The notes beneath the pieces are model-generated. The model saw only the letters and a program-made list of their open reading frames with translations, did no database searches and was not told the DNA's origin. Positions 33,344-56,835 of a DNA stretch of 64,000 nt are shown piece after piece. The stretch's first letter is position 1. Each line of letters begins with the position of its first letter. Source of the DNA: Bacillota bacterium (lineage in GTDB: Bacteria > Bacillota > Clostridia > TANB77 > CAG-508); the NCBI GenBank assembly GCA_963929525.1, contig CAWVJB010000011.1:4762-68761 (forward strand), given 5' to 3'. The position numbers and the translations under genes were made by a program.

Positions 33344-33937
33344 CTATGTACAAATTTTTTTATGATTTTCTTTAATATATTGATCTTTTTTCTTAAATCT
33401 TTCTCTTTCCTTTCTTGCTTTATATTTATAGTAAAAAAACATAAAACATAAAAAGAAAAATAAAATAATGCTTGTCACTTTTGATTGTAAGATAATTAAT
33501 AATATACCTAACAATGGAATTTTAATTATTTTTTTTCCTATTATCTGATTTTTTGAAACTTTGTCTATATTAGGATAATAATTTTGATTAAATTTTGTTA
33601 TATATCCATCATCTTTGCTAACAATCTTATTTATTCGTATCTTATCATGCATTTCATAAGCTATAATATCATTTATTTTCAGTTCAGATTCTTTAACTTC
33701 TTTTGTAATTATGAAATCATATTTGCTAAGATCATCTTCCATTAGTTCTGTATCTATACAAAAGAAGCTTATTCCAAATAAATGAAAATATGATTTATTA
33801 GATATGGTTGTATTAATTAAGAATAAGATATTGAATAAAATACAGAATGTTATTATAAAAAATATAATTGGTATTAATATTTTTTTTAACGTTTGCTTTT
33901 TTTCAAATTTCGTTTTTCTAGATTTTACTTTCTTCAA
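33344..33937 (-). CDS. SipW-like signal peptidase paralog with the catalytic residues replaced (probable pseudo-peptidase)
   Basis: Aligns with the neighbouring SipW: SDSMEP becomes DTELMED (Ser to Leu), THRI becomes INKI (His to Asn), GDNN becomes KFNQN. It keeps the N- and C-terminal TM segments. Its start overlaps the upstream gene by 20 nt. Confidence 0.6.
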   Translation of the reverse strand: MKKVKSRKTKFEKKQTLKKILIPIIFFIITFCILFNILFLINTTISNKSYFHLFGISFFCIDTELMEDDLSKYDFIITKEVKESELKINDIIAYEMHDKIRINKIVSKDDGYITKFNQNYYPNIDKVSKNQIIGKKIIKIPLLGILLIILQSKVTSIILFFFLCFMFFYYKYKARKERERFKKKDQYIKENHKKICT

Positions 33938-34496
33938 TTTTCTTTTTTTCTCTCCTATTTTCTAATTTCTCTTGTTTTTCTATCTTTAAAAAGAATAAAA
34001 TTAAAATGATAAGGATTATAATCAAAACAATTAATTTATTTTCAAGTACTGAAATGATGTTTCCTAAATATGGTATCGTTAAAATACATTTTCCAATGAT
34101 TGCAGAAAATTTAATATTTTCACTATCTTCTATATTGTTGTTATCACCTTTTGTTATATATGTTTTTTCTTTCGTCATCTGGTCTACTTCTACTTTTTGG
34201 ATACGGTGTGTCATAACCTCTTGATTTTGTTCAAAGGTTATGACATCACCTGTTTGTAAATCTTCTTCTTTACATTCTTTTGTAATAATGACATCACCAT
34301 TACTAATAGATGGTTCCATGCTGTCTGATGTAATGATATAGGCTCTATATCCAAATAATCCTATCCCATGATTTTCAGAAGAAATAAAAATTAATATTAT
34401 GTTATAAATTAAAATAACCAAAATAACAGCTAATATTTTCTTTACAGTATTGGCATATTTTTTTCTTTTATTGATTGAATCAACATCATATTTCAT
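33918..34496 (-). CDS. sipW: Signal peptidase I, SipW (ER/archaeal S26B) type
   Basis: FGYRAYIITSDSMEPSI (Ser box), MTHRI (His box), KGDNNN, and a C-terminal TM segment. Matches the B. subtilis SipW motif order. Confidence 0.85.
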   Translation of the reverse strand: MKYDVDSINKRKKYANTVKKILAVILVILIYNIILIFISSENHGIGLFGYRAYIITSDSMEPSISNGDVIITKECKEEDLQTGDVITFEQNQEVMTHRIQKVEVDQMTKEKTYITKGDNNNIEDSENIKFSAIIGKCILTIPYLGNIISVLENKLIVLIIILIILILFFLKIEKQEKLENRREKKKIEESKI

Positions 34497-34602
34497 AATT
34501 GATTTTTATTTCCTTTCTCTTAGCAATTTAAAAAAGAATTTCTGTACACCAGTAATCTTTAAAGTGCACTATATTATGTTAGATTTCAGCCCAGAATGTT
34601 AT

Positions 34603-35118
34603 TTATTTTATCACTAAGTAATCAAATGCTTCTCCCACATATACATCTCCGTCATATAATTTATATACAAGTTTATAGGTTCCTGTCATTAAATTCTCTT
34701 TAAATAAAAAACTGTTTTCTATTTTTTCTAATGGTGATGTAGATATGATATATTCTTTTTCCTTTTCGTTATGGGTTGCCTTTGTCAAACCATTGTTCAC
34801 AAATTCTTGCAAATCAACTAATGTATAAGTTTGTGCATATTCTTCATCATAGTCTCTTCTATATAATGATACTGTAATATTGGGATTGGCTAATTTTGAA
34901 GAATATTCAACTGTTGTTTGCAATATATTTGAATTTTGCTCATTCATGCCTGTTTCTTTATTAATTATTTTACCCATATCGCTGTTAACAACTTTTAGAC
35001 CAAATGCTGAATTGATAATTCTAACATCTAATTCTATTTTGTCAGATGCAGTCAAACCGTAATAAATTCCATCTGGTGAACCAAATGATTCGATTTGAAT
35101 TTTATAATCTCCGTGTTG
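34603..35118 (-). other. +1-frame continuation of the giant gene (169 codons from GGA at 35112: GDYKIQIESFGSPDGIYYGLTASDKIELDV...)
   Basis: The frame is open from 35118. There is no ATG or SD of its own (the track calls a TTG at 35055). It overlaps the last 5 codons of the 2573-aa ORF. The composition continues the beta-rich C-terminal region. Confidence 0.6.
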
Positions 35119-55478: not shown

Positions 55479-56111
55479 TTATTCAGCAACATATTGATTT
55501 AACTCTTCTCCCAAATATTGACAAACATGCACAGTAATTGGAATTTGATATTCTGCCCCCCATGTCGTTCCTAACGCAATATCTTCTTCATGATTATTTT
55601 CATTTTCCATCCATTCTACTTCTACAGTAATTTCATTTGTCGTTCCTGCTTGTATGTTTTCTAATGGTATAATTCCTGTATACGTATTTTTGTCTGTTTT
55701 TACTAATTCATTTCCATTTAATGTTTCTTTTATCGATTTGATTTGTATATTTGGATTCGTCAGTTTTTCTTCATCTAAATGAATATCATATCTTACTGAA
55801 ACATTGGTATCTTTAGGATTAATATTGATTTTAAAGGTACCGGTTAAACCAGGTGCTATATTCCCTGGTTTAACATGTTCATTTTCTTCCACAGTCACAT
55901 TGTTTATATCAAATTGTATATCTGTTCCGTTGGTTATATCTGTTCCATTAACAATAATATTCCATGTTCCATTTTTGAGTTGAACGCTTGCTCCTAATTC
56001 ACTATGAAAAAGCGCATATATTCGAATTACTCCATATATAATTAGTAAAATGATACATAAACACAAAAAAATCAATACTTTTTTTGTGTTTTTTTTACCT
56101 AAATTCGTCAT
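55479..56111 (-). CDS. Small secreted TasA-like-signal protein, paralog family member 3
   Basis: ...IRIYALFHSELGASVQLKNGTWNIIVNGTD. Shares PGNIAPGLTGTFKININ / SVRYDI blocks with 47225-47818 (IIAPTAEGYFDLNFDF / SFQYEI). Confidence 0.7.
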   Translation of the reverse strand: MTNLGKKNTKKVLIFLCLCIILLIIYGVIRIYALFHSELGASVQLKNGTWNIIVNGTDITNGTDIQFDINNVTVEENEHVKPGNIAPGLTGTFKININPKDTNVSVRYDIHLDEEKLTNPNIQIKSIKETLNGNELVKTDKNTYTGIIPLENIQAGTTNEITVEVEWMENENNHEEDIALGTTWGAEYQIPITVHVCQYLGEELNQYVAE

Positions 56112-56112
56112 T

Positions 56113-56676
56113 TTATTCTGTTTCCTTAGCTTCTTTTTTATCTTCTTTTGCTTCCTCTTTAATTTCTTTCTTTGCTTGTTTTATTCCAGTAGCAACCACC
56201 ATGATTTGATTAACAAATGCGATTAATGCTGGTAATACAATTAAAAATAGAAATCCCCATTTTGATTCTATAATGCCTAATACGGTTCCCACATTTGGCA
56301 TAATGGTTGCTGTTGATGTAGGTCCTATAACATATTCATCTGAAATTTCATATTCCCCATCATCGATTAAATATTTTACATCAAATTCGTTTGAATCATC
56401 TATATCATTGATTGTTCCTAATCTTATCACGACTTGTTCATTATATACATCATAATATAGAAATTTATCTCCTATTTCTAGCCCATCAGCTTTGTCTATA
56501 ATTGCTAAATCCCCTTTGTTGAAATCTGGATTTAATTTATTGTCTGGTACAATTACAAATGATGTTGTACCAAATTCTGATACTTTATAGTCATTGTATG
56601 ACAATAAGCAAACTGTTACAAATATGGCAATTACTAAATAAATCATAAAAATAATGTTAAAAAATACTCTCTTCAT
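56113..56676 (-). CDS. Second degenerate SipW-like paralog (no Ser or His box); first gene of the operon
   Basis: Has SipW-like topology and spacing (N-terminal TM, FGTTSFVIVPDNKLNPDFNKGDLAIIDK, C-terminal TM, K/E tail), but SGSM and THR are absent. Start at the ATG with SD aaggggg. Confidence 0.5.
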   Translation of the reverse strand: MKRVFFNIIFMIYLVIAIFVTVCLLSYNDYKVSEFGTTSFVIVPDNKLNPDFNKGDLAIIDKADGLEIGDKFLYYDVYNEQVVIRLGTINDIDDSNEFDVKYLIDDGEYEISDEYVIGPTSTATIMPNVGTVLGIIESKWGFLFLIVLPALIAFVNQIMVVATGIKQAKKEIKEEAKEDKKEAKETE

Positions 56677-56835
56677 TTTTTCCCCCTTGTATAACAAAAA
56701 AATTCTAGTGCCAATATATCATACTAGATTTTTTTTTTCAACGTTTTTTTATTAGTTTCGATATTTTTTTATATTTTCATTTACATTTTTTTATGCGAAT
56801 GTTATAATAAAATAAATTTACTGTGGAGGATACAA

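Follow-up and report, generated by a model that had tools for sequence, protein, structure and literature searches.

A putative CoCoPALM-type surface-structure locus with five SipW-type genes and an McrBC-like module in an uncultured gut Clostridium

The 64,000-nucleotide stretch of DNA analysed here (hereafter the window) comes from a Bacillota bacterium of the Clostridia (GTDB lineage TANB77; CAG-508; assembly GCA_963929525.1, contig CAWVJB010000011.1, positions 4,762 to 68,761). At about 33344-57747 it carries a gene cluster that probably encodes a CoCoPALM-type apparatus for assembling a surface fibre or adhesin in this uncultured, small-genome gut Clostridium; the details of the mechanism favoured below are held at lower confidence than this general statement. 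Nearly all genes of the cluster lie on the minus strand and are separated by short gaps. A first-pass annotation of the window had proposed a SipW-processed surface structure at 33344-56697. The open reading frames (ORFs) it listed are all present at their coordinates, and the conserved cluster reaches past that end to include a divergent 303-amino-acid (aa) gene at 56836-57747 and also takes in a 40-aa ORF at 44500-44622.

The components of the cluster are given below. Bit scores refer to TIGR02228, the NCBIfam model of the archaeal/SipW-type signal peptidase I (cutoff 51.85 bits), TM denotes a transmembrane segment, and hhalign values compare protein families.

33344..33937, minus strand: pSipW1, pseudo-peptidase, 47.2 bits (under the cutoff)
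33918..34496, minus strand: SipW2, 107 bits (the top score), Peptidase_S24/S26, Ser/His/Asp kept
34603..35055, minus strand: g150, 150 aa, no TM, conserved after the giant gene
35102..42823, minus strand: giant protein, 2573 aa, signal anchor, central Gly/Asn-rich repeats
42836..44413, minus strand: cc525, soluble helical protein of 525 aa that travels with the giant gene
44500..44622, minus strand: 40-aa ORF, conserved, upstream of cc525, called as a gene in three related loci (L001-L003)
45048..46061, minus strand: s337, candidate major subunit with a putative SipW-cognate signal and a predicted beta-sandwich
46255..47118, minus strand: s287, bitopic core component with a K/E-rich cytoplasmic tail, TM 80-98 and a beta-rich ectodomain
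47225..47818, plus strand: s197p, signal-anchored beta-sandwich subunit, on the strand opposite to the cluster
48071..48685, minus strand: s204, signal-anchored subunit, hhalign 86.6% with s210 and 79.5% with s197p
48709..49365, minus strand: SipW3, 86 bits, Ser/His kept, Asp replaced
49425..50564, minus strand: McrC-like partner, DUF2357 (PF09823) at 52 bits (cutoff 23.3), acidic helical C-terminal half
50582..52102, minus strand: McrB-family AAA+ GTPase, 506 aa, TM 58-76, charged helical linker
52183..53184, minus strand: c333, soluble cytoplasmic protein, no TM, always upstream of the GTPase gene
53218..54165, minus strand: s315, signal-anchored 315-aa extracytoplasmic protein, TM 20-38
54185..54757, minus strand: s190, signal-anchored small subunit, hhalign 93.6% with s197p
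54841..55380, minus strand: SipW4, 71.5 bits, Peptidase_S24, active-type Ser/His/Asp
55479..56111, minus strand: s210, signal-anchored beta-sandwich subunit, TM 11-29, hhalign 99.6% with the s197p family
56113..56697, minus strand: pSipW5, pseudo-peptidase, 23.6 bits (under the cutoff), NF046067 at E=3e-7
56836..57747, plus strand: p303, soluble helical protein of 303 aa, divergently transcribed, of no family

The locus is one co-inherited system. A genome scan with one genome per species gave 44 loci, all in metagenome-assembled genomes of uncultured gut Clostridia or Bacillota, one of them on a closed 1.55-Mb chromosome. By tblastn the same gene order is found in about 35 of the 44, down to 70% GTPase identity, and reads p303 / pSipW5-s210-SipW4-s190-s315-c333-McrB-McrC-SipW3-s204-s197p(inverted)-s287-s337-(40-aa ORF)-cc525-giant. 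A metagenome scan added 80 further loci at 54-86% GTPase identity that retain the order, with variants of three kinds: duplication of s337, loss of s210-SipW4-s190 as a block, and insertion of large proteins with a TYAFFNY signal. The first-pass annotation had taken the cluster for a coherent system and not a mosaic of unrelated insertions, and this synteny over more than 100 loci bears it out. In every full-length locus the McrB and McrC genes stand between c333 and SipW3. Among 34 divergent loci, s197p keeps its position and inverted orientation in 33, c333 has a homolog in 32, and s315, which is retained in reduced variants as well, is found in 31; in 26 the gene next upstream of the pSipW5 homolog is a p303 homolog, in either orientation. 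Duplicated s337 occurs in many loci, and SipW4 alone is missing in some. The most distant relatives (L041, at 50% GTPase identity, L094, L106, L123 and L124) keep an s287-like and an s337-like protein, SipW, McrB and McrC, and these five genes are therefore taken as the core, which recurs in minimal form at 50-58% GTPase identity. Each relative with full coverage has at least one detected SipW, the minimal L041, L106, L123 and L124 among them. One locus with a reduced cluster, L059, holds two extra large proteins of 673 aa (3298-5319) and 861 aa (9387-11972) with textbook SipW-cognate junctions, TYAFFNYTRTGS.

The genes of the system differ in their rate of change. Across loci with 65-90% GTPase identity, the median identity is 77% for the GTPase, the most conserved gene, 54% for the McrC-like partner and 45% for s337, the least conserved. 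The best-conserved small subunit is s190 (68%), followed by s315 and s287 (64% each) and s197p (62%). Within s337, conservation is 0.79 at the termini and 0.56-0.62 in the middle, a pattern typical of polymerising surface subunits, and the gradient from the GTPase to s337 with its variable middle fits a cytoplasmic motor with exposed subunits. The GTPase has at least 8000 homologs, and 765 clusters of its family at 50% identity reach E<=1e-30.

The first-pass annotation had described a membrane-anchored McrB-like ATPase with a partner. Both are present and can be assigned more sharply, the former to the McrB family and the latter to DUF2357. A profile of 13 GTPase orthologs has E. coli McrB (6hz4, 6ut6, 7vsr; E 7e-7 to 9e-7) as its sole significant match in the PDB, spanning Walker A through the signature motif. 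The motifs GISGTGKTS (Walker A), LDEMN (Walker B) and N347-N348-D349 are invariant. The last is followed by D, or by E in L047 and L048, so that the NNDD of the window can also be read as NxxD, while the NNDE relatives fit NxD only. After TM 58-76 the protein continues with a basic stretch, a charged segment free of Pro and Gly (86-125) and the AAA+ domain. The McrC-like gene adjoins the GTPase gene in every locus; beyond DUF2357 its product has no Pfam, NCBIfam or PADLOC match and no detected nuclease, and its C-terminal half has no family or PDB match; a sequence-profile search for an McrC structure gave none. In L048 (18-5972), on a contig binned as Bacteroidaceae, tandem McrB-like genes of the same subfamily, at 40-43% identity, flank a 507-aa DUF2357 protein with many charged residues and are followed by a 720-aa signal-anchored protein, with no SipW visible within the available 7 kb.

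An NxD-type McrB GTPase clade with such features has been named CoCoPALM (Bell et al., eLife 2024, PMC11090510). In the part of that paper concerned, the clade is given two sentences, with fuller analysis deferred to a future paper; it is tied to signal-peptidase-family proteins and a predicted pilus assembly, its GTPase is described as carrying an N-terminal fusion with an FtsB-like TM and a coiled coil, and an adjacent DUF2357 gene codes for a McrC homolog, in which a coiled coil is usual (PMC11090510). The present locus likewise has an NxD-type GTPase whose N-terminus carries a TM and helical segment, a DUF2357 McrC homolog lacking an active nuclease, and signal-peptidase genes, here five of the SipW type. 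The FtsB homology and coiled coils of the published description are not reproduced: the GTPase N-terminus has no match to Pfam DivIC/FtsB at E up to 10 and only weak coiled-coil-type matches, so that FtsB/DivIC homology, considered as a candidate, was not detected by Pfam. Judged by gene features and not by placement in a tree, the locus appears to fit CoCoPALM as sketched in that account. The literature searched yielded no CoCoPALM follow-up and no other paper linking McrB with pilins or with SipW or other signal peptidases. The earlier claim that no system of this composition had been described thus needs qualifying, since the association of McrB with signal peptidases already has a name, although the CoCoPALM sentences of PMC11090510 take it no further and are silent on substrates, pseudo-peptidases, a giant protein and a core gene set. 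What is new relative to the literature searched is the inventory of parts, the core set and the occurrence of pseudo-peptidases; the CoCoPALM kind itself is already named.

The SipW-type proteins fall into enzymes and pseudo-enzymes, as the first-pass annotation had proposed, and all five have a SipW-like layout with two TM segments. SipW2, SipW3 and SipW4 score above the TIGR02228 cutoff, and pSipW1 and pSipW5 fall under it and have both lost the catalytic Ser and His. In alignments all 37 SipW4 orthologs carry Ser, His and Asp. The 39 SipW3 orthologs all have Ser and His as well, and the position of the Asp is taken by I, L, V or K. In pSipW1, which overlaps SipW2 by 20 nt, Ser is replaced by Leu and His by Asn. 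The loss is essentially universal among 36 orthologs of pSipW5 (Ser to K/E/D/T, His to G/A), which implies an old, maintained pseudo-peptidase and not a decaying gene; its closeness to the SipW3 family is seen in an hhalign value of 97%. A second SipW2-like ORF follows SipW2 in L063. The notion of a dedicated peptidase for each subunit class agrees loosely with the data, in that peptidase genes adjoin particular subunit genes and s210-SipW4-s190 are lost together, but not with those loci from which SipW4 alone is missing.

The seven small proteins (45048, 46255, 47225, 48071, 53218, 54185 and 55479) each have one N-terminal TM and no match above threshold in Pfam or NCBIfam. A junction with Tyr after the TM is conserved in the alignments of every family. 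The Y-A-x-F-like junction reported for all seven is borne out, in the wider Y-A-x-aromatic form, for four of the window copies (YAWF at 45048 and 48071, YAKY at 47225, YALF at 55479), the other three having Tyr only (KYES at 54185, GRY at 53218, FYEG at 46255). The family patterns are S-T-Y-A-W-F-T-x-N for s337, with YAWFT at 100% and the window copy STYAWFTAN included, N-x-[YF]-A-W-F-[IV]-Y for s204 (AWF 100% conserved), I-[YF]-A-K-Y for s197p, I-Y-A-x-F-x-S for s210, [KR]-Y-E-S for s190, G-R-Y-x-T for s315 and Y-E-x-G-x-F for s287. TIGR04088, the model of the SipW-cognate signal, matches 59 of 69 members of the s337 family (best E 6e-5), and one of the 2315 s337 homologs is named after this signal in JGI. 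The proposal of a SipW-type cleavage signal on the small proteins thus holds at least for the 337-aa family, with its invariant YAWFT and a bona fide SipW-cognate signal, although TIGR04088 gave no match for the window copy.

The relationships among these proteins were compared by hhalign, with ortholog alignments from the 44 related genome loci. Clear paralogs are s197p and s210 (99.6%), which s190 and s204 join at 79-94%. The link between s337 and s287 consists of a C-terminal (W/F)VEGxDxDC motif only, and s315 has only weak links to the other small proteins. In near-identical contigs s287 is called as 245 aa, and its true start is probably near 46992. The AF2 model of s337 is a confident beta-sandwich (pLDDT 89, pTM 0.85) in which the junction (27-35) is unstructured and the first strand has lower confidence. 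For s197p a seven-strand sandwich is modelled at pLDDT 69, and its segment 30-74, conserved in sequence, falls below pLDDT 50.

Kinship of these proteins with TasA or with archaeal bundling pili, as suggested at first, found no support. The subunits do not match Pfam Peptidase_M73/TasA, and PDB profile searches are empty at E up to 10. In Foldseek searches the s337 model has no match better than E=0.04, the s197p model retrieves generic sandwiches only (a MAM domain, lectins, carbohydrate-binding modules and, at rank 8, FimG), and TasA stands outside the top 50 for both. The hhalign probability is 0.2% against an unverified TasA sequence. With Pfam, PDB profiles, Foldseek and hhalign all negative, TasA homology of the subunits is rejected. 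Hence the first reading splits: the SipW-type signal stands, and the TasA-like subunit falls because TasA is lacking from both profile and model searches.

The giant protein and its neighbours form a module of their own. The giant ORF encodes 2573 aa (2568 aa as called in near-identical contigs) and not the 2600-2740 aa estimated earlier. The RAFSNS-type junction ascribed to it recurs as [RK]-A-F-x-x-S-[RK]-A at the N-terminus of 30 distinct orthologs. Residues ~1000-1900 hold repeats of (V/I)(Y/F)GG(G/S/A)N at a spacing of 24-29 residues with 16-18% Gly; no match was found in Pfam, NCBIfam or PDB sequences, and the repeat pattern is consistent with a beta-solenoid or beta-helix fold. At residues ~1215-1300 a Trp/Tyr-rich segment, KWIFERESGNNYYIKNASTGQYIYV, breaks the Gly/Asn repeats and by eye has some likeness to ricin-type lectin repeats, without support from hidden Markov models. 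The g150 gene lies in a frame different from that of the giant ORF and is a separate conserved gene, with tblastn matches between the giant gene and SipW2 in L035 and L042; SipW2 follows the giant gene and g150 in L035, L042, L063 and L122. In nearly all loci cc525 and the giant gene stand next to each other in this order, on the downstream side of s337 or on the upstream side of pSipW5, and the module cc525-giant-g150-SipW2(-pSipW1) is permuted to the other side of the core in L035 and L042 and lies ~5 kb away in L004. In L004 a 34-aa homolog of the 40-aa ORF stands directly before the cc525 homolog (16139-16243). Because this ORF of 34-40 aa, MDLKDVKTGELIEFYKKFDEFLKYLEKE, is kept at cc525 even where the module has left s337, it is likely a real micro-protein of the giant module. 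As to the two proteins described earlier as coiled coils, this is plausible for cc525, in which a crude scan finds three heptad-like segments (64-99, 148-176, 208-239), and weak for c333, with one segment. A degenerate EAL (cyclic di-GMP) domain in c333, suspected by eye and from the EAL genes beside the minimal system of L041, was effectively rejected (Pfam E=0.011 in 3 of 15 members; hhalign 0.04% against the EAL protein of L041). Two EAL-domain genes (6418-7221 and 14909-17263), one of them for a membrane-anchored protein, flank the minimal system of L041, which hints at cyclic di-GMP control of this type of system.

Several known systems invite comparison with the locus. SipW-TasA-TapA of B. 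subtilis, SipW-CalY of B. cereus and SipW-BsaABC of C. perfringens share with it an archaeal/ER-type SipW beside secreted proteins and a TIGR04088-type signal with an aromatic residue just past the cleavage site. Those operons have one SipW, whereas the locus has five paralogs, two of them pseudo-enzymes. Its subunits lack TasA/Peptidase_M73 likeness in sequence, profile and fold, and an NTPase module and cytoplasmic proteins, absent from TasA-type operons, are integral to it. A precedent for SipW-dependent fibres coupled to a cytoplasmic NTPase comes from C. perfringens, where oligomers of the SipW substrate BsaA depend for their secretion on some of the genes associated with type IV pili, among them pilB1, the gene of the assembly ATPase (PMC11580942). 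Type IV pili and type II secretion systems resemble the locus by analogy only, with a membrane peptidase, major and minor anchored subunits and a hexameric NTPase acting via bitopic proteins. Pfam and NCBIfam find no PilB/GspE ATPase, A24 prepilin peptidase, PilC or class III signal in the locus proteins, and the cleavage motif precedes the TM in type IV pili but follows it here. Similarly, there is no LPxTG motif in any locus protein and no sortase match in Pfam or NCBIfam. With E. coli McrBC the locus shares the AAA+ GTPase core, Walker A and B, the N-x-(x)-D signature and a DUF2357 McrC-type partner; it differs in having a TM anchor in place of the DNA-binding N-domain, a partner with no detected PD-(D/E)xK nuclease, and a secretory and not a restriction context.

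A working mechanism can be sketched from these parts. Sec would insert the subunits such that their N-termini stay cytoplasmic, and the SipW paralogs would cut after a conserved small residue, at Y-A|W-F in s337 and s204 and at R-A|F in the giant protein. The fast-evolving and often duplicated s337 would be the major subunit and would polymerise, possibly by complementation with an N-terminal strand, at which the conserved N-terminal segments that are poorly modelled in the monomers hint only indirectly; s287, retaining its long K/E-rich charged cytoplasmic tail, would form a membrane-embedded base, the other small paralogs would serve as minor or initiator subunits, and the giant protein would be the displayed adhesin. 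A McrB hexamer with McrC, tethered under the membrane via the TM and helical linker, may perform GTP-driven work or gating by which subunits are extracted or the fibre is driven across the wall, in a role functionally analogous to that of PilB/GspE in type IV systems. The pseudo-SipWs may act as non-catalytic scaffolds that bind signal anchors. A distinct GTP-powered pathway for Gram-positive surface filaments, with SipW-released beta-sandwich subunits, a membrane-tethered McrBC motor and dead-SipW scaffolds, is put forward tentatively on this basis.

Several points weigh against an assembly apparatus of this kind. No likeness of the subunits to TasA is detectable, and their likeness to solved pilins goes no further than the generic beta-sandwich; three of the seven lack the Y-A-x-aromatic junction and are possibly never cleaved, and the window's own s337 fails to match TIGR04088 in either NCBIfam scan. 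For the GTPase and its McrC-like partner, a crude heptad scan and Pfam confirm neither coiled coils nor an FtsB-like character. To our knowledge, no member has been seen to form a filament, undergo cleavage or show GTPase activity, and we know of no McrB relative that acts on proteins or membranes. Moreover, near-universal vertical conservation in small genomes also fits a housekeeping function in the envelope. An envelope, division or sporulation structure, such as a wall-spanning scaffold, a sheath, an S-layer-like coat or a spore appendage, with the GTPase as a morphogenetic or regulatory NTPase, would explain why the cluster is present in the same synteny in practically all related genomes sampled, those of ~1.5 Mb among them, and why the GTPase is conserved like a housekeeping gene. 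PBP1a adjoins the cluster here and in close relatives, SpoIIID lies near it in L004, and the published N-terminal fusion is called FtsB-like in the CoCoPALM part of PMC11090510. The adjacency to PBP1a is gone in more distant loci, however, the FtsB/DivIC search (Pfam, E up to 10) came back empty, and a fast-evolving, duplicated s337 with an adhesin-like giant protein is typical of exposed, host- or phage-facing structures; such an envelope role is judged unlikely.

Vertical conservation across dozens of species beside rho, prfA and PBP1a is also unlike the patchy distribution of defence islands. A membrane-associated, McrBC-derived defence system related to the CoCoNuTs, in which the SipW-like and beta-sandwich proteins would be envelope sensors or effectors against phage, is improbable for this reason and because Pfam, NCBIfam and PADLOC find no nuclease or other effector domain, HEPN included, in any locus protein. 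The McrC homolog is DUF2357 only, and the GTPase carries a TM anchor where a DNA-binding N-domain would be expected. In favour of defence, McrB and McrC families function overwhelmingly in restriction or defence, the NxD branch in which the GTPase falls also holds the CoCoNuTs, and the GTPase is matched by PDC-M26A, a PADLOC model for candidate defence systems (E=4e-34). A chance meeting of three unrelated units (an operon for SipW and matrix proteins, a McrBC island and the gene of a large adhesin) would draw on the giant module, which is found on either side of the core or ~5 kb off (L004, L035, L042, L058), so that the units are physically separable. Yet the McrB/McrC slot is fixed in all full-length loci, minimal relatives still join subunits, SipW and McrBC, and the giant module stays beside the core even when permuted; chance is already strongly disfavoured and has very little probability left.

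The cluster sits in AT-rich chromosomal DNA (~27% GC). Its housekeeping neighbours in the window are, among others, the genes of Rho (rho), of PrfA (prfA), of P-type ATPases and of a class A penicillin-binding protein. A plasmid origin is ruled out by this context and by a PLSDB megablast of the window without a match. An Rfam scan of the whole window found no riboswitch or other RNA. Promoter-like sites are at the chance level for AT-rich DNA (120 found, 121 expected), and the delimitation of operons by promoter and terminator scans was dropped; the only candidate of note, at 56713-56808, is a plausible pair of divergent promoters. The adjacent p303 has no TM segment and sub-threshold Pfam matches only. 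Directly downstream of the cluster, at 30731-33223 (minus strand), a gene encodes a membrane-anchored protein of 830 aa with S8 subtilase, CarboxypepD_reg and C-type lectin domains (the last at Pfam E=3e-17). It was rejected as a member and is probably outside the system, since it has no homolog in 129 related loci.

Other features of the window lie farther off. A non-coding 1.5-kb stretch at about 16515-18048 has ~19-20% GC, a skew that flips from positive to negative and converging flanking genes, and looks like a replication-terminus region; neither a B. subtilis-type dif pattern nor Rfam gave a match there. A heavy-metal P-type ATPase at 24955-27169 (minus strand) is split into two overlapping ORFs, with the HMA and E1-E2 ATPase parts at 25943-27169 and the HAD hydrolase part at 24955-25968, by a frameshift, as a pseudogene or through an assembly error; an intact second P-type ATPase lies at 28042-29889. 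At 62144-63322 (minus strand) a membrane-anchored protein of 392 aa has a cluster of CxxC motifs near its N-terminus and no Pfam family, and its gene adjoins that of a XerC/D-type tyrosine recombinase (61097-62080).

For the CoCoPALM class, hitherto named but uncharacterised, the locus provides a parts list and a five-gene core. The system is abundant in uncultured Clostridia known from metagenomes of the human gut and elsewhere, with at least 8000 GTPase homologs. If the locus is indeed an apparatus for fibre or adhesin assembly, the McrBC motor of a restriction enzyme would have been domesticated to drive or gate the assembly of a fibre across the Gram-positive envelope, which would be the first role of the McrBC engine that does not involve nucleic acids. 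The pilus machineries of the sortase, type IV, chaperone-usher, curli and TasA types would likewise be joined by a new class. The exposed, fast-evolving subunits and the giant adhesin would then be candidates for attachment to the host or to particles, and for phage receptors.

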